Shown: piece after piece, positions 2,898 to 46,177 of the stretch
Layout: each line of letters begins with the position of its first letter
Numbering within the stretch: the stretch's first letter is position 1
DNA from: an uncultured Victivallales bacterium
Lineage (GTDB): Bacteria > Verrucomicrobiota > Kiritimatiellia > UBA8416
Direction of reading: 5' to 3'
NCBI GenBank assembly: GCA_964576795.1
Contig: CAZNWT010000026.1
Coordinates: 1 to 46,177 of the forward strand
DNA: 46,177 nucleotides
The notes under the pieces: model-generated
What the model saw: the letters and a program-made list of their open reading frames with translations, nothing else
The model's database searches: none
Told to the model about the DNA's origin: nothing
Made by a program: the position numbers and the translations under genes

Positions 2898-3376
2898 CCA
2901 CGACTTCAGCTATCTACTACTGGCCTGTACACCTATTGCAACTCGAAGAATTTGTAATGTAAAACCGCTGCCAGAACTGCGATACTAACAGCCATGACGG
3001 GCGATCATGTCACGGAAAACCGGCATCTCTCTGTACGCAACCGCGTCGAGACGCCACGGTCCACCGGGTTGACGAAAACGGGCGACGAGAGTGGATAACG
3101 ATCCTTCGCCGTTCCGGCTATGGCGTGACAGAGCAGAGAGTATCCCATCGTCCACCGTTCTCGTCGCCCGCTCTCGTTGCCCAATGAGATTGTGGCGAAC
3201 ATGTGATGCGCCCGATCCCTACTCCGCAACACCTTACGAAAAACGCACACCCGTGCCCCCCCCCTCAACCAAACGCGTTGCGCCAAATACCCACCCTTGC
3301 AAACCTCGACCGACCATGATATTTATTATTGTCAAAATCAGGTATGGTATTGTGATCATAAGCATGGAGGCATAGC

Positions 3377-4024: not shown

Positions 4025-5508
4025 TCCATTCCATGCTACCCGTCATCATTGCACAAGCCGCGCGCACATCGCGTTCAGGGGCGCCCGTCGGCCTAATTCT
4101 ATCTATGATTCTGGCGGCAGCCGTTATCGTGCTTTTTATCAGTTTTGCCAAGCGCTACAAACGGTGTCCTTCAAATCGAATTCTCGTAATTTATGGCAAG
4201 ACCAATCAAGGTGCAGCACGCTGTATTCATGGCGGAGCCGCTTTTATATGGCCGCTGATTCAAGCCTACGATTTTCTGGATCTTGAGCCATTCGTGGTTC
4301 CGATTGATCTCAAAAATGCGCTCTCGTTTGAAAACATCCGAGTCACTGTACCCACCACGGTGACCGCCGCCGTCTCAACCACAGCAGGCATTATGCAAAA
4401 TGCCGCAATCCGCTTGCTGGGCCTCACAGCCAAAGAGATTCAGAATCAGGCGCAGGACATTATTCTCGGACAAATGCGTGCCGTGATTGCCACAATGAAA
4501 ATTGAGGAAATCAATCAAGATCGACAGGCTTTTCTGGGAAAGGTCAACGGGGCAGTCAGTGGCGAACTCGAAAAGATCGGACTATCCCTAATCAACGTCA
4601 ATATCCGTGATATTGAAGATGAGTCCGGCTACATTGTCGCCCTCGGCCGCCGCGCCGCTGCCGAAGCCATCAACCAAGCCAACATTGACGTCGCCGAGCA
4701 AGAAAAAACTGGTAAGACGGGCGTCGCAGAGCGAAATCGCGACCAGCGTGTTGCGGTCGCTGCAGCCAATGCCGATGCCGAAATTGGTGAAGCCACAGCG
4801 GACAAAGAGCGTCGCACAAAATCGGCAGCACTCGATGCAGGTGCTGTGGAAGGTGAAACTCAAGCTGATGCAGAAAAAGCGGCCTTCCGAGCCAACCAGA
4901 GCGTTGCTGAACAGAGCGCCCGTAATCGGTCCGAATCCGCCTCACGCGAAGCCGATGGTGCGATTCGCGTAGCGCAGGAAGTAGCCGAGAAGCTTGCAGA
5001 AGAAGCACGAGCAGAGCGCGAGCAGGCTCGTCTGAATGCCGAGATCGTGGTTCCCGCTAATGCTGAACGCGAAAAGGTAGTGATTGCAGCCAATGCCCAG
5101 AAGGAAAAGTCTATACGCATTGCGGAAGGTGAAGCCGCAGCAACGCTGGCACGCATGACAGCAGAGGCCAAAGGTGTTCAAGCCATTTTGGATGGAAAAG
5201 CCGAAGGCTATGAACAGCTCGTGGGTGCATGCTCATCAGCAGAACAGGCGGCCTCTCTACTGTTGATTGAGAAACTGCAAGAAATAGCCCGAATTCAGGC
5301 GCAAGCCATTCAGGATCTTCCCATTGACAAGATCTTTGTATGGGATACAGGCGGCGAGAACCAAGGCATGGCCAATCTGGGACAGCGGATGATGGGAGCG
5401 CTCCCCCCGATGCAGGAACTTGCAAAGCAAATTGGCCTTGATCTTCCCGAGTATCTCGGAAAAGCCACGGGCAAAGAGACAAAGCCAACCGAATCACCAA
5501 CGGCATAG
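4021..5508 (+). CDS. floT: Flotillin-like SPFH/band-7 domain protein (FloT/YuaG-type)
   Basis: The 495 aa comprise an N-terminal membrane anchor, an SPFH domain, and a long Ala/Glu/Arg/Lys-rich coiled-coil (EA-repeat) region, which is the typical flotillin architecture. Confidence 0.85.
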   Translation: MIHSMLPVIIAQAARTSRSGAPVGLILSMILAAAVIVLFISFAKRYKRCPSNRILVIYGKTNQGAARCIHGGAAFIWPLIQAYDFLDLEPFVVPIDLKNALSFENIRVTVPTTVTAAVSTTAGIMQNAAIRLLGLTAKEIQNQAQDIILGQMRAVIATMKIEEINQDRQAFLGKVNGAVSGELEKIGLSLINVNIRDIEDESGYIVALGRRAAAEAINQANIDVAEQEKTGKTGVAERNRDQRVAVAAANADAEIGEATADKERRTKSAALDAGAVEGETQADAEKAAFRANQSVAEQSARNRSESASREADGAIRVAQEVAEKLAEEARAEREQARLNAEIVVPANAEREKVVIAANAQKEKSIRIAEGEAAATLARMTAEAKGVQAILDGKAEGYEQLVGACSSAEQAASLLLIEKLQEIARIQAQAIQDLPIDKIFVWDTGGENQGMANLGQRMMGALPPMQELAKQIGLDLPEYLGKATGKETKPTESPTA

Positions 5509-10278: not shown

Positions 10279-11100
10279 TCACCTTGCATTTAAATGTTCC
10301 CAGCAGGACGCAGGCGAAGGGCTGTCGTATCGGCAGGCGTGCAATTCGCCCACTCCGGCTACACAGAAGACGCAATAGCCAGGCGCCGCCAAGCACGGAG
10401 ACGCAAGACACAGCAACCAGAGGCAAATATATCCGATAAAAACAGGCCGGATCCGGGTGAGGAACAACACTCGAACTCGGGGCCAGAATACCGACCAGAG
10501 TCCAATGAACCCCACTGGGGACGACAGAAAAGCAAGACCACCGAGCCAACCCCCAACGCCAGAATCACAAAACCGCCCACGCCCAGGTTTGCAACAGATG
10601 AAGCGAGAGGCCACCCAAGATCCAAAGGCAGAGAGCAGGGAACAAACACGCGTCGCAGATAATGAAAAATAACCCCCGCTTCCGTCACGGCATAATATAG
10701 CGGCGACGTCTCACTCTGCATGATAGATTGAGCAGAGCCCTCTCCCCACAGTTTCATGACCACATCCGCTAACCAGCCCCCCCCCCCCCCATGTCAACGC
10801 CATCCCGAGGTGGAGGCCCCAGCGCTCCTTAAACTGCACCTTCAGAGACCCCAATATAAAAAACCGGTTATAGAAAAAGCAATACGGGGGCCGTGATCAT
10901 GACTTCCTTGGTACCCATCCCAACCCCACACGCCAGCCCCCCTCCCCCCATACCATGCTATGCACCGCCAGCGCGACCGCGCGACAGAGCCACGAATGAG
11001 GCACCATACTCTGAGCAGATACAACATCCCCATGAGCAGCTCGCCGTGTTGCCATATATACGTGACTAATGCAGTCTACATGGGATGAACCGCCCAAAGC
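10279..11100 (-). pseudogene. Probable degraded membrane-protein gene (or low-quality sequence) with long poly-C tracts
   Basis: Several overlapping hydrophobic minus-strand ORFs (10244-10549, 10279-10614, 10359-10763, 10842-11033, 10897-11097) are broken across all three frames. There is a C14 run at 10777-10790 and C6TC6 at 10937-10949. The plus strand has strong A/C skew. Confidence 0.35.
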
Positions 11101-14245: not shown

Positions 14246-14386
14246 GGCTGGCTCCTCATAAGTAATGGATATCAACGGATCCAGAGACTATTGTGGATGG
14301 ATGAAATGGTCAAACAAAACCCATGCAGACTTGCCTTCCCAGCAATGCTCAAGTAAGAATATATCTACGGCGTGTTGCCCCAATAG

Positions 14387-14478
14387 AGATTCCTCGACTT
14401 CGCTCGGAATGACAGACTCTAGATACTTAAATTTTATAGAGAAATATCATGCTGAGCTTGCCGAAGCATCTCGCCGAC
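14387..14478. repeat. Intergenic repeat copy A (upstream of purB)
   Basis: It shares the blocks 'gagattcctcg', 'cttcgctcggaatg', 'tcatgct' and 'gaagcatctcgccga', in the same order, with the element at 21862-21991. Confidence 0.55.
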
Positions 14479-14592
14479 TTGTCCGCCGTAGCACGAAGTG
14501 CGAAGGAGGAAGTGCGAAGGAGAAAGGCGCTTTTTGATTTAAGAAACACGCCGGCCATATAAGAATCAACCGCGATCAACTTTGGAGTCACC

Positions 14593-15954
14593 ATGTCTGA
14601 ACTCACCGCTTTGAGCCCTCTTGACGGGCGCTACGCATCAAAAACAGCTGCACTTTCCGAAATTTTCTCTGAATACGGGCTAATCCGATATCGTGTCACC
14701 ATAGAGGTGCGGTGGCTGATGGCGCTATGCGCCGAACCGGGCATACCGGAAGCACGCACGCTAACGGCTGTAGAAACAAGCCTGCTTGAACAGGTGATAT
14801 CCGACTTCTCACAAAAAGATGCCCAACGCGTCAAAGATATTGAGCGCAAAACCAACCATGACGTGAAGGCCGTTGAGTACTTTCTTAAAGAAACCATCGA
14901 AAACACCTCACTGGAGCCTCTCTCGGAGTTCTTACATTTTGCCTGTACGTCCGAGGACATCAACAACATGTCGCATGCCCTACAGCTTCGCGATGGCATG
15001 CAAGTGATCACCACCACCCAGTCAGAGTTGATCACCGCACTGACGACTTTGGCACAGCAGACACGAAAGGTGGCCATGCTGGCTCGCACGCATGGGCAGA
15101 CGGCTTCCCCCACAACAGTGGGCAAAGAAATTGCCGTTTTTGCCAACCGACTCCAAACGCAATCCATGCGCCTATCCGCTATTGAAATCAAAGGCAAACT
15201 CAACGGAGCCGTCGGCAATTTCAATGCCCACGTTGCAGCATATCCGGATGTAGATTGGCCCGAACTTACACGGCGTATCATTGAAGACGAATTGGGGCTG
15301 AAGCAGAATGCCTTCACAATTCAAATCGAGCCGCATGATTATATGGCTGAACTCTTTCATGCCATGATGCGGTGGAATACCATTCTGCTGGATCTGGATC
15401 GTGACCTTTGGACCTACATTTCAATGGCCTACTTTGGTCAGCTAACCGTTGAGGGTGAAGTCGGATCATCAACGATGCCGCACAAGGTCAACCCTATTGA
15501 TTTCGAAAACAGCGAAGGCAACATTGGTATCGCAAATGCAATCTTCGACCACTTGGCCTCTAAGCTGCCAGTCTCCCGTCTGCAACGCGATCTTACGGAT
15601 TCCACGGTTATTCGCAATATGGGCACCGCGTTTGGCTATTCAATGATTGCCTACGCATCAACACTTAAGGGGCTATCGAAGCTCAAACTTAATCCGGAGC
15701 GCATTGCTGCAGATCTCAATAATGCATGGGAAGTGCTCGCAGAACCCATTCAAACCGTAATGCGCAAGGCAAACATCGAGAAGCCCTACGAGAAGCTGAA
15801 GGCCCTCACGCGCGGCCAGACCGTCACACAAAAAAGCCTCCGGGCTTTTGTGGAAACGCTGAAGCTTTCAGAAGCAGACAAGGCGCGCCTCATGGCCATG
15901 ACTCCTGCAAGCTACATCGGGATTGCTGATAAGATTGTGGATCTACTCGATTAG
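14593..15954 (+). CDS. purB: Adenylosuccinate lyase
   Basis: At 453 aa it is highly similar to E. coli PurB along the full length ('SPLDGRY', 'HFACTSEDINN', 'SSTMPHKVNPIDFENSEGN', 'TRGQ'). Confidence 0.95.
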   Translation: MSELTALSPLDGRYASKTAALSEIFSEYGLIRYRVTIEVRWLMALCAEPGIPEARTLTAVETSLLEQVISDFSQKDAQRVKDIERKTNHDVKAVEYFLKETIENTSLEPLSEFLHFACTSEDINNMSHALQLRDGMQVITTTQSELITALTTLAQQTRKVAMLARTHGQTASPTTVGKEIAVFANRLQTQSMRLSAIEIKGKLNGAVGNFNAHVAAYPDVDWPELTRRIIEDELGLKQNAFTIQIEPHDYMAELFHAMMRWNTILLDLDRDLWTYISMAYFGQLTVEGEVGSSTMPHKVNPIDFENSEGNIGIANAIFDHLASKLPVSRLQRDLTDSTVIRNMGTAFGYSMIAYASTLKGLSKLKLNPERIAADLNNAWEVLAEPIQTVMRKANIEKPYEKLKALTRGQTVTQKSLRAFVETLKLSEADKARLMAMTPASYIGIADKIVDLLD

Positions 15955-20198: not shown

Positions 20199-21838
20199 GT
20201 CCCCACAACTCCTTGAACCAACATTTCCGCCGCTTTAAGACCGTCTATAGCTGAACTCACGATTCCCCCCGCGTAGCCAGATCCCTCTCCTGCTGGATAG
20301 ATTCCGGGATGACTGACCGATCTTCCCTGCGCATCACGTAGTATACGAACCGGACTAGAGCTGCGGGTTTCCGCTGCATAGAGAAGGATATCCTCAAACT
20401 TACAGCCATTAAGATACCGCAACATCCGCGGAATCGCCACCCGCAGTGTGTCCAGAACAAAAGCGGGTAGGATCTTAGTGAAATCGGCAGGGACAGAATT
20501 TGAACAGGAACGATTCTCAGGAAGATCGACCGAAACCTGATCAACCAAAAAATCAGTCAACCGTACAGCGGGAACGGAAAATGTAGAGCCTCCCTCTTGA
20601 AAAGCCGCTTTTTCTATGGCCTCTTGAAACCGAATTCCGGATAGCGCTTCGTGCTCGCCTGCATGGGCCGTTGTTGAAAATGAATCCGATTGCACGGGCA
20701 CGATAAAGGCCGCATTGCCCCAGAATCCATTGCGGGCAGAGTAACTCATGCCATTGGTCGTCATCATGCCAGGCTCACTGGCGCACGCAATCACAAGCCC
20801 CCCGGGACACATACAAAAACTATAACATGCGGAAACACCATCCTCAGGCTTACGCGTTAACTTAAAACTGGCCGCACACAGTTCCGCGTGTTCAGCAAAA
20901 CGCCCATACTGGGCCTGATCAATCTGTGACTGTGGCAACTCAAGACGTACACCAACAGCAAACGGCTTTGACTCTATTGCAACATCGTTCTTCGCCAACA
21001 GGCGGTAGACGTCCCTAGCGCTGTGTCCCACACAAAGGATGAGATGGCCTGTTTCAATCAGAGTGCCCCCTGCAACCACCCCAATCAAACGACCGCCATC
21101 AAGGCGAAAATCATCAAAACGAGTATTGAATTGAAACGCACCACCATGCGCTTCAATTAATGCCCGCAATCTCGGAACAATCTCCAGGAGTTTATCACTC
21201 CCAACATGCGGCTCAGCATCTATCAGGATGTCCGGCGATGCACCGCACGCAACTAACGTTTCACAAAACCGGCGAACACGAGGGCGATCCTTGCTCCTTG
21301 CTGTCAACTTACCATCCGAAAACAACCCCGCCCCGCCTTCACCATAGAGCGTGTTACTCTCGGGATTCAGTTTTCCAGATCGCCAGAAGGCATCAACATC
21401 CAGCGCTCTTTCCTCAGCATCCCCCCCCCGCTCAATCACAAGGGGGTTGAGTCCAGACAATGCCAAATGATAAGCCGCCATCAATCCAGCCGGACCAGCC
21501 CCAACAACAACAGGACGATGATCAAGATCTCTGACGCACAATCTTTGAGGCTTAACCACAACGGTTGCATCGCGCTTTTCAACATTCGAGAGACGCTTGA
21601 GCGCAGATCGGAGCCGCCCCGAAACATCGGCCTCAACCTGAAAAACGATCACAGGAGCAGCGCGACGCGGACGGGCATCAAGGGATCGCCTTAAAACACA
21701 AAAAGATAGCAAATCATGCGACTTGCACTGTAACCGCTTGATGATGGCATTCCTGACTTGCATATCCGTATAGCCAAGCGGAACTTCAAGCTGCCGTATC
21801 ACCAATTTAAGTAAATCATTTTTCATAATAAACCGCAT
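20195..21838 (-). CDS. FAD-dependent oxidoreductase (COG2509-like); ORF in the track extends to 21901 but the likely start is 21838 or 21826
   Basis: It has the Rossmann motif 'VVVGAGPAGLMAAYHLALSGLNPLVIERG' and a C-terminal 'GIYPAGEGSGYAGGIVSSAIDG' typical of the NAD(FAD)-utilising dehydrogenase family. Confidence 0.7.
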   Translation of the reverse strand: MRFIMKNDLLKLVIRQLEVPLGYTDMQVRNAIIKRLQCKSHDLLSFCVLRRSLDARPRRAAPVIVFQVEADVSGRLRSALKRLSNVEKRDATVVVKPQRLCVRDLDHRPVVVGAGPAGLMAAYHLALSGLNPLVIERGGDAEERALDVDAFWRSGKLNPESNTLYGEGGAGLFSDGKLTARSKDRPRVRRFCETLVACGASPDILIDAEPHVGSDKLLEIVPRLRALIEAHGGAFQFNTRFDDFRLDGGRLIGVVAGGTLIETGHLILCVGHSARDVYRLLAKNDVAIESKPFAVGVRLELPQSQIDQAQYGRFAEHAELCAASFKLTRKPEDGVSACYSFCMCPGGLVIACASEPGMMTTNGMSYSARNGFWGNAAFIVPVQSDSFSTTAHAGEHEALSGIRFQEAIEKAAFQEGGSTFSVPAVRLTDFLVDQVSVDLPENRSCSNSVPADFTKILPAFVLDTLRVAIPRMLRYLNGCKFEDILLYAAETRSSSPVRILRDAQGRSVSHPGIYPAGEGSGYAGGIVSSAIDGLKAAEMLVQGVVGT

Positions 21839-21861
21839 ATCGACTTCGCGCTGCCCAAATC

Positions 21862-21991
21862 GAGATTCCTCGGCTCCGAAGCAAGTCTGGGATGCAGGCA
21901 CTTCGCTCGGAATGGCACCTACAAAGTAGTCAGCTTTCAGAAAATTGTCATGCTAATCCCGACGGTACGTCGGGACGAAGCATCTCGCCGA
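21862..21991. repeat. Intergenic repeat copy B (between the divergent FAD-oxidoreductase and cNMP-binding genes)
   Basis: It has the same ordered blocks as copy A, with a 28-nt insertion and an internal perfect hairpin cccgacggtacgtcggg. Confidence 0.55.
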
Positions 21992-22136
21992 AGCGCTCTT
22001 ACAATTTGGGCAACACGCCGTTAAATTTAATCACATGTCTCAGTATGCACATATCTCCGAGATGTGCCAGAGGAGAGCATCCCATTTGACAGTGGATTTT
22101 AAACTCTCCATTTGCAATGATCACCGCAGTGACAAC

Positions 22137-22712
22137 ATGAAACAAAATCCAATAGAAGCTCTACTTGAGGTACAGGACATTCTCCCAATCCTCAACGACA
22201 TATCACTCTTTGGCGGACTAACCAAAGACCAGCTCAATACCGTATTCCGCCACCTCGGGAGGGCCCATTTTGAAAAAAATGAGTTTATCTTTGAGCGGGG
22301 TGACCCTCCAAGCCATATCTACATTGTCTGGAAAGGCCGAATTGAGCTCCTCCTCGATATCGAAGGAAGCTATCTTGCGCAAACCGTCTTTGCTGTTGGG
22401 CAGTGTTTTGGAGAGACCTCTGCCATCGGCATTGAACCCCACACGGCAAGCGCAATGGCCACCGAATCCACGGATCTCATTGTTCTCTCCACACATTCCC
22501 TGTTTGAGATTTGGGAAATTGATAAAGCTCTGTTTGGGATGCTGATCCTCAACATTGCCAGAGAAGCATGTCGTCGCCTTAGCACATCAGACGAAACGCT
22601 ACTCCACTACTTTGCACACCACGAACACCGTTCTGTACTGCCGGAACCTCTCCCCATTCAAAACACAGGACCTACGGGGAAAGCACCTTCAATCGAGCGC
22701 CATTCGGATTGA
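22137..22712 (+). CDS. Cyclic-nucleotide-binding domain protein; ORF in the track starts at 22035
   Basis: 'FEKNEFIFERGDPPSHIYIVWKGRIEL.......GQCFGETSAIG' is a cNMP-binding beta-barrel with the phosphate-binding cassette (FGE). No clear C-terminal HTH is present. Confidence 0.7.
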   Translation: MKQNPIEALLEVQDILPILNDISLFGGLTKDQLNTVFRHLGRAHFEKNEFIFERGDPPSHIYIVWKGRIELLLDIEGSYLAQTVFAVGQCFGETSAIGIEPHTASAMATESTDLIVLSTHSLFEIWEIDKALFGMLILNIAREACRRLSTSDETLLHYFAHHEHRSVLPEPLPIQNTGPTGKAPSIERHSD

Positions 22713-46059: not shown

Positions 46060-46072
46060 CCAAAAATCGCCT

Positions 46073-46177
<105 letters not shown>

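Follow-up and report, generated by a model that had tools for sequence, protein, structure and literature searches.

What is the short intergenic element that stands upstream of purB in the genome of an uncultured Victivallales bacterium and recurs between the genes for a flavin adenine dinucleotide (FAD)-dependent oxidoreductase and a cyclic nucleotide monophosphate (cNMP)-binding protein? Both places lie on contig CAZNWT010000026.1 of assembly GCA_964576795.1, whose 46,177 nt are referred to here as the window. A first-pass annotation had described a two-copy repeat of ~90 nt and had offered a small mobile element such as a miniature inverted-repeat transposable element (MITE), a shared cis-regulatory module, and a small RNA or attenuator as possible explanations. 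The two copies, copy A at purB and copy B at the oxidoreductase/cNMP locus, are members of a dispersed compound palindromic family found in Kiritimatiellota/Lentisphaerota-like bacteria. The explanation that we favour, with a probability of about 0.7, is that both are dispersed compound repeats built from paired repetitive extragenic palindrome (REP) hairpins carrying a CGTC or TGTC tag, that these hairpins are likely targets of a small nuclease of the Ssn type, and that the copies do not form a switch for purB or the cNMP-binding gene.

The recurrence within the window is real. The four conserved blocks stand in the same order at both sites, and the window contains exactly two instances each of CTTCGCTCGGAATG (14398 and 21901) and GAAGCATCTCGCCGA (14463 and 21977); with up to two mismatches allowed, chance would supply 0.63 and 0.27 matches. 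A blastn comparison of copy A with the rest of the window returned four collinear pieces at copy B (E values of 1.7e-4, 0.007, 0.025 and 0.025) and otherwise noise. A chance resemblance of two intergenic regions might be argued from the mere two copies in the window and from the modest E values of the individual pieces. The exact 14-mer and 15-mer blocks in the same order and the full-length relatives at E 6e-44 and 1e-41 reduce the probability of such a coincidence to practically nothing. The shared blocks are above chance and further copies exist elsewhere, so that coincidence, which had been named as the outcome that would dispose of the repeat, does not account for it.

The length first given to the repeat has to be about doubled. 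An inverted repeat of ~20 nt, ACGGCGTGTTGCCC... / ...GGGCAACACGCCGT, brackets both copies, and we therefore place copy A at 14367-14554 and copy B at ~21847-22021. The order of parts is the same in each: an outer arm, unit 1, a spacer of ~30 nt, an inverted unit 2, optional modules and the other arm, the second half of the element being a diverged, inverted version of the first. On the plus strand unit 1 reads GAG-ATTCC-TCG(A)CTTCGCTC-GGAAT-GACA, and the reverse complement of unit 2 (tcatgct...gaagcatctc) reads GAG-ATGCT-TCGGCAAGCTC-AGCAT-GATA. Written on the tag strand, with slashes at the ends of the stem, the unit is YGTC / AT-NNN-GA-(short stem + 3-nt loop)-GA-N'N'N'-AT / CTC. Its stem consists of five Watson-Crick pairs, a conserved GA/GA (TC/TC) internal loop and about two further pairs closed by a 3-nt loop, which makes nine stem positions, two of them non-canonical. 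In both copies the two units are non-identical and inverted, with the tags pointing inward to the spacer. The features are as follows.

14367-14554, unstranded: copy A, whole compound element of 188 nt, delimited by its outer inverted repeat and by alignment to 18 relatives
14367-14386, unstranded: copy A, outer inverted repeat, 5' arm ACGGCGTGTTGCCCCAATAG, partner of 14535-14554
14386-14414, minus strand: copy A, unit 1, a TGTC-tagged REP unit, TGTC / ATTCC-GA-GCGAAGTC-GA-GGAAT / CTC
14415-14444, unstranded: copy A, spacer with complementary ends CTCTA...TAGAG
14445-14472, plus strand: copy A, unit 2 with the degenerate tag TATC for TGTC, TATC / ATGCT-GA-GCTTGCC-GA-AGCAT / CTC
14478-14522, plus strand: copy A, optional module Y, comprising an additional stem-loop with a GAA loop, CTTGTCCGCCGTAGCACGAAGTGCGAAGGAGG, and a tandem duplication of 14 nt
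14535-14554, unstranded: copy A, outer inverted repeat, 3' arm TGATTTAAGAAACACGCCGG, partly decayed
~21847-22021, unstranded: copy B, whole compound element of ~175 nt
21847-21862, unstranded: copy B, outer inverted repeat, 5' arm CGCGCTGCCCAAATCG, partly decayed
21862-21917, minus strand: copy B, unit 1 with the degenerate tag TGCC and a 27-nt stem-loop insertion in its loop
21873-21899: copy B, module Z, the insert of 27 nt carried by the unit 1 loop
21918-21945, unstranded: copy B, spacer
21946-21986, plus strand: copy B, unit 2, TGTC / ATGCT...AGCAT / CTC, whose loop holds an inserted hairpin
21957-21975: copy B, module X, TCCCGAC-GGTAC-GTCGGGA, in the loop of unit 2
22002-22021, unstranded: copy B, outer inverted repeat, 3' arm CAATTTGGGCAACACGCCGT

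Most of the finer details first described hold up in this layout. The insertion in copy B exists and measures 27 nt (21873-21899) rather than 28, the cccgac/gtcggg hairpin of copy B lies within 21957-21975, and the tandem gaagtgcgaaggag duplication of copy A occupies 14495-14508 and 14509-14522. The string aaaggcgcttttt before purB, which had been read as a GC hairpin with a T-tract, belongs instead to the element as its conserved 3' arm, for which relatives have AAGGCGCTCTTTCGATTTGGGCAACACGCC, and a terminator scan was empty there. Copy A ends 39 nt upstream of the purB ATG at 14593, and both copies sit in divergent promoter regions.

The description as a two-copy family is true inside the window and fails outside it, where the family is large. 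Relatives were gathered by scanning metagenome contigs for unit 2 and genome contigs for unit 1; the resulting loci carry L numbers. The same composite was found in a Victivallales metagenome-assembled genome (MAG; L082) and at about 25 metagenome loci, with unrelated flanking genes, and its members are compound palindromes of 135-210 bp. L192 matches copy A over 14370-14541 at 80% identity (E 1e-41), shares its 14-nt tandem duplication and has modules X and Y. L169 matches copy B over 21846-22023 (82% identity over 181 nt, E 6e-44) and has modules Z and X, the Z insertion being present with changed bases. Module X is common to copy B, L155, L169, L192, L195, L199, L202, L210 and L215, and module Y to copy A, L136, L168, L176, L182, L192, L199, L202 and L210. 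Spacer sequences vary among the relatives; complementary spacer ends are visible by eye in several, and only 57% of the spacer ends are paired in the fixed alignment register, where winA sits one column out. The identity between copies A and B is 75%, equal to the family median, and each of the two is 82-84% identical to copies from other samples. A and B are old copies and not the products of a recent burst.

Three further observations concern the behaviour of such copies. L182:4868-5040 and L202:13495-13680, from one metagenome, are 91% identical and differ in the presence of module X, which suggests that loop modules are gained and lost between close copies. Tandem direct copies of unit 2 occur three times in L149 (~4248-4425, minus strand) and twice in L130:501-591; units can thus amplify locally head-to-tail. 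L002 (Logan contig SRR8526173_50551) is an independent assembly of the purB locus whose contig starts 100 nt upstream of purB, inside copy A, and a break at this point is the effect expected of a dispersed repeat in short-read assembly.

Among the explanations first proposed, a mobile element such as a MITE came closest, since the family is dispersed, non-coding and palindromic and its members stand in unrelated contexts. A classical MITE would be a deletion derivative of an insertion sequence (IS), moved in trans by a DDE transposase acting on terminal inverted repeats of ~20 nt. The repeats of that length at the ends of the element, its size and its scattered contexts all agree with this, and the two types of outer arm, GGCGTGTTGCCCAAA... 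and GTGGCTGTTGAAAAAC..., are each matched at both ends. Like the Correia elements and RUP, which are bacterial MITEs, the present element is short and non-coding, exists in multiple copies, is bounded by terminal inverted repeats and often lies near gene starts. Unlike them, it comes without a target-site duplication (none was visible at 20 inspected copies) and without a related IS, and its core is a pair of REP units. The internal units are the best conserved part rather than the ends, and the core is common to several phyla with different flanks. No transposase family emerged as a recurrent neighbour among 1,425 open reading frames (ORFs), and no transposase-like ORF recurred near units; a GIY-YIG nuclease gene of the Ssn type was the sole recurrent neighbour. 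In ~1.6 Mb of sequence searched, the outer arms were never found without units, and no longer element with the same arms was found. We regard a classical MITE as unlikely.

Does the unit really pair? The covariation test that had been proposed for the element supports its helices. It was carried out on a composite alignment, A2, of 20 sequences with specified helices, in which 85% of the helix cells were paired, as against 35-40% with the partner slid. Pairs changed on both sides numbered 18, and the observed covariation score was reached by 0 of 500 shuffles. Helix 1 of A2, formed by the outer arms, was 84% paired, and 10 of its 20 pairs were changed on both sides; these changes mostly mirror two subfamilies and therefore represent few independent events. 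Columns 25/73 and 26/72 of A2 are A-U and U-A, without exception, in all 20 sequences. The variable 3-bp stem between its fixed flanks was perfectly complementary in 325 of 348 distinct instances, distributed over 10 triplets, where chance would give complementarity in 1 in 64. As single-stranded DNA (ssDNA), unit 2 of copy B together with module X folds at -12 kcal/mol (z = -3.3). In DNA, two kinds of structure have unusual stability: tandem sheared G.A pairs flanked as C-GA-G, and GNA triloops on a closing G-C pair, as in d(GCGAAGC).

Compensatory changes of this kind would also be expected of a structured RNA, that is, a 5'-leader, attenuator or small RNA regulating purB and the cNMP-binding gene. 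The position of both copies in divergent promoter regions, with copy A 39 nt before the purB ATG, suits such a function, and a folding energy of -80 kcal/mol (z = -6.2) was obtained for the minus strand of copy B. The compensatory changes fit DNA as well, because a palindrome leaves the same signature at the DNA level. The proposed Rfam search gave no match at the gathering threshold in the window and no Rfam 15 family at E<=10 in either region, and promoter-like or terminator-like sites were not found at either copy. The strand test was likewise neutral: G.T versus A.C mismatches favour neither strand (14 vs 26 in the outer helix). The window purB is closest to proteins from Kiritimatiellae and Verrucomicrobia MAGs, and its relatives (78-83% protein identity) have different upstream genes; the three distinct ones at 78-79% that could be read as DNA (L233/L234, L235 and L236/L237) lack the element upstream of purB and have no unit in ~9 kb each. 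The oxidoreductase/cNMP locus of L238, read as DNA, also lacks it: the element is absent from the 133-nt intergenic region there, a second relative having been compared by gene order only. Related copies stand beside unrelated genes, and units show no orientation preference. The cis-regulatory module, small RNA and attenuator of the first-pass annotation are thus left unsupported by Rfam, the promoter and terminator scans, the loci of relatives and the strand test, and we consider a regulatory RNA quite improbable, somewhat more so than a classical MITE.

The unit has a distribution far wider than that of the composite. An exact match to the 25 specified bases of unit 1 is present at a minimum of 120 genome loci from about 12 phyla. 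The hosts of this core belong to Verrucomicrobiota, Kiritimatiellota, Lentisphaerota, Acidobacteriota, Chloroflexota, Nitrospirota and Gemmatimonadota, and further to Bacteroidota (including Hymenobacter isolates), Armatimonadota, Cyanobacteria, Firmicutes-like MAGs, Proteobacteria and one MAG of the candidate phyla radiation (CPR). The flanks around the identical core are lineage-specific. When the tag was left free, TGTC was found in 208 of 269 units and CGTC in 41 of 269, nGTC making up ~95%; when the tail was left free, CTC was found in 236 of 269 and CCC in 13, and the first tail base was C in 263 of the 269 units, as counted from the tails listed. The stem variants, ATTCC, ATGTC, ATCCT, ATCCC, ATTCT, ATTTC and ATGCT, all begin with AT. 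Where units form pairs in genome loci, 54 pairs have their tails facing, 9 their tags facing and 4 are direct, with median spacers of 29-49 nt. Units are mainly intergenic, and their orientation to neighbour genes is unbiased (35, 24, 16 and 13 in the four classes). The 32-nt unit had no blastn match in plasmids. Literature searches by nucleotide strings or repeat-encoded peptides gave irrelevant primer matches or nothing.

Six viral contigs from IMG/VR also carry units (L223, L225, L226, L227, L229 and L230). They have in common an ORF of ~900 aa without a Pfam match, and their units have longer inner stems (GGGC...GCCC).

Tag, stem start and pairing recall the CGTC-tagged REPs (Di Nocera, De Gregorio & Rocco 2013, BMC Genomics 14:522, PMC3733652). 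These have an unpaired CGTC tag, which is often TGTC and may be CCTC, A-T at the first two stem positions, stems of 8-9 bp, loops of 4-5 nt and a 3-nt unpaired tail that is mostly CCA. They form inverted dimers, often of unlike units, with spacers of 20-100 bp, head-to-tail pairs being rare. Some dimers sit inside longer palindromes, and there is no dedicated transposase; the superfamily includes Neisseria dRS3 and Rickettsia RPE-4 and RPE-6 (PMC3733652). The present unit shares the YGTC tag and likewise begins its stem with two A-T pairs; it has a conserved 3-nt tail, but this is CTC or CCC and not CCA. It is likewise mostly intergenic and multi-copy, occurs as inverted non-identical dimers whose spacers often have complementary ends, and lies within longer palindromes. 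Its ATTCC equals the first five stem bases of Rickettsia CGTC-1, as deduced by back-translating the peptides SFPRKRES and VIPAKAGI. Two differences are of distribution and architecture: the present unit is found in Kiritimatiellota, Lentisphaerota, Verrucomicrobiota, Acidobacteriota, Chloroflexota, Nitrospirota and others, phyla that are absent from the CGTC list of that paper, and the window elements have an added 20-nt outer inverted repeat and optional stem-loop modules. Tag, A-T start and inverted pairing with 20-100-bp spacers thus agree with the definition of the superfamily, whereas stem and loop size do not. Judged by its sequence, the unit belongs in form to the CGTC/TGTC-tagged REP superfamily, as an undescribed variant.

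An inverted hairpin doublet with a spacer is also the layout of a REPIN, the type of element mobilised by RAYT, a REP-associated tyrosine transposase of the HUH Y1 class, as with the GTAG-tagged REPs of Pseudomonas and E. coli. REPINs (Bertels & Rainey 2011) resemble the present elements in that the doublet can fold into one long hairpin, is non-coding and is dispersed; the copies here look old and diverged, in keeping with long persistence. One unit-bearing viral contig, L225, even has a Y1_Tnp ORF (PF01797, 28.2 bits) at 1167-1817. This gene, however, has no units at its sides, the nearest one being ~4 kb away, and among ~240 loci queried with an approximate E. coli YafM sequence, Y1 ORFs were found only in viral contigs L225 and L226, neither of them unit-flanked. 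The tag here reads YGTC, not GTAG. Di Nocera et al. saw no tyrosine transposase with CGTC repeats at its sides (PMC3733652), and the partner seen in the neighbourhood of the present units is a GIY-YIG nuclease, with no association to Y1 or RAYT. Mobilisation of the REPIN type is accordingly a very remote explanation, more so than a regulatory RNA.

The nuclease in question has a counterpart in Neisseria. There SsnA, a GIY-YIG nuclease whose 94 aa form a single domain, binds the sequence NTS, CGTCATTCCCGCGMAVGCGGGAATCYRG, and cleaves it (Chenal et al. 2025, Nat Commun 16:2388, PMC11893778). SsnA cuts only ssDNA, on the tag strand only and a few bases upstream of the tag, and is inactive on double-stranded DNA and RNA. 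Cleavage depends above all on the three bases preceding the palindrome and binding on the C that follows it; extensions of the loop are tolerated. The ssnA gene is arranged as NTS-ssnA-NTS, ssn genes being typically flanked by the motif, and the process affected in Neisseria is natural transformation (PMC11893778). The present unit has the same CGTC-AT...AT-C frame, with GTC before the palindrome and C after it, and its loop also takes insertions.

The arrangement of a single-domain GIY-YIG gene between units is seen at other loci carrying the unit as well. The ORFs of the gathered loci were searched with an approximate GIY-YIG consensus query and the matches then checked with Pfam, which gave six single-domain GIY-YIG ORFs (PF01541). 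Five of them are adjoined by units: L004 and L071 (one Kiritimatiellae MAG contig), L040 (Dehalococcoidia), L091 and L130. The units lie 0-25 nt upstream and/or, inverted, at or overlapping the 3' end. In L004 and L071, CGTCATTCCGAGCGAAGTCGAGGAATCTC stops one base short of the ATG, and the upstream side of L040 is arranged alike; the GIY-YIG gene of L004 also overlaps at its 3' end with an inverted unit. The ORF of L091 lies between two identical unit dimers, and that of L130 is preceded by one unit and followed by four, among them the ATGCT-type unit 2 known from the window. The L130 protein matched the gonococcal chromosome in tblastn at 47% identity (E 1e-16), in an ORF of 94 aa that stands among 12 NTS copies in 1.4 kb and carries Y6, Y17 and E64, the residues mutated by Chenal et al. 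(PMC11893778). The L091 and L004 proteins were each 43% identical to this gonococcal SsnA-like ORF over its full length, with E values of 6e-29 and 3e-24, respectively.

The Ssn-like genes at L004:4732-5124 and L071:3021-3251 are 95% identical. The L004 gene has V for the catalytic Glu and the other is truncated after ~77 aa; both may be decaying copies.

Several observations weigh against reading the copies as paired REP hairpins targeted by an Ssn nuclease. The stem of the present unit has 5 bp, a GA x GA loop and ~2 bp, as compared with 8-9 contiguous pairs in the CGTC REPs. Its loop is 3 nt long (GAA, GGA, GCA or GTA on the tag strand) rather than 4-5 nt, and it ends in a CTC tail in place of CCA. 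The plain unit folds as ssDNA at only -1.4 to -1.6 kcal/mol by nearest-neighbour DNA folding, no better than shuffles; the energy model gives no credit to G.A pairs, and because single-unit folding is weak, the case for pairing rests on covariation and not on predicted stability. The window has no ssn gene, no GIY-YIG ORF having been found in its 46 kb, and in the L004 homologue the catalytic E is replaced by V. The search pattern published for Ssn-related motifs (SRM), HGTCWYN(0-2)YYVSBRHN(0-5)WNVSBRGN(0-2)RNCYNB, matched nowhere in the window and 0 of 291 units, whereas the gonococcal ssnA locus, used as a control, gave 7 matches; the units escape the pattern because the tandem GA violates it. 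One tag is mutated in each window copy (TATC in A, TGCC in B, next to an intact TGTC on A unit 1 and B unit 2). By the mutagenesis in Neisseria such tags should impair cutting, and the window copies may therefore be decaying relics. As regards mobility, finally, no pair of empty and filled sites at high identity and no near-identical copies were found, the maximum identity being 91%.

Taken with these points, the units beside Ssn homologues in other genomes still lead us to favour the paired, Ssn-targeted hairpins over the other explanations. On that basis we infer that this organism has an Ssn, that the enzyme cuts these units, and how the copies have spread. Replication, repair or incoming DNA would make the site single-stranded, and each strand would then show one correctly oriented unit. 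A cognate Ssn, probably encoded elsewhere in the genome, would recognise the unit by the GTC that precedes the stem and the C that follows. It would nick a few bases upstream of the tag, making one cut per strand, inside the spacer of a tag-inward dimer. The partnership of nuclease and hairpin would be the most likely agent of the spread and maintenance of the family. The placement of the copies at the purB and oxidoreductase/cNMP promoter regions would be incidental, and if these genes were affected at all, that would be a by-product of the structured insert.

A broader proposal, which we put forward tentatively and with considerable doubt, is that the GA-bulged unit (YGTC-AT-NNN-GA...GA-NNN-AT-CTC) represents an unrecognised pan-bacterial branch of the Ssn/hairpin systems, missed by the SRM pattern. 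Its lineage-specific composites would be replicators spread by a GIY-YIG nuclease of 90-100 aa and not by a transposase. If this were true, GIY-YIG-driven spread would be a new mode of mobilising non-autonomous DNA. The unit itself is of greater interest than the two copies in the window, in that an abundant cross-phylum variant is overlooked by the published search pattern. CGTC/TGTC-tagged REPs and their Ssn partners are extended here to Kiritimatiellota and Dehalococcoidia, where ssn genes are flanked by units, and units are present in many further uncultured lineages of soil and water. Should the link to Ssn hold biochemically, the hairpins would mark sites of ssDNA cutting, with a bearing on recombination, the uptake of foreign DNA and the spread of repeats.

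For the annotation of the window, a false regulatory lead for purB and the cNMP-binding gene is removed and errors in gene starts at copy B are exposed. The FAD-dependent oxidoreductase (P0121) is recorded with 568 aa from a GTG at 21901; its homologues support the ATG at 21826 and 543 aa. The ORF of the cNMP-binding protein from 22035 aligns to relatives only from M35, and the real start is the ATG at 22137. Both ORFs are over-extended, at 21827-21901 and 22035-22136, because the calls run into copy B. Two relatives of the locus (71-74% protein identity) have a 146-aa HTH_3 gene between the oxidoreductase and cNMP-binding genes, where the window has copy B (L238:2427-2867 compared with window 21827-22136). 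No exact empty site was found among the relatives at either the purB or the oxidoreductase locus; what they offer is absence of the element.

Integron attC sites, CRISPR repeats, hammerhead-type ribozymes and k-turns were considered as identities for the element and set aside, their consensus features being absent as judged by eye only.

The window also contains a second repeat family at 3038-3261, within the intergenic region 2898-3376, with a 31-nt inverted repeat whose arms lie at 3072-3102 and 3147-3177. Its only Rfam match was a miRNA at chance level (E 0.91). Copies 76-84% identical to it occur at L125:10055-10176, L134:187-320 and L207:6072-6199, none of them adjoining the REP-dimer elements. 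Long poly-C tracts, CCAGCCCCCCCCCCCCC, stand at 10773-10789 and 10933-10949, 160 nt apart, and 46068-46164, at the end of the window, holds an inverted repeat of a G-run and a C-run with arms of ~24 nt; both features may be assembly artefacts or homopolymer features.

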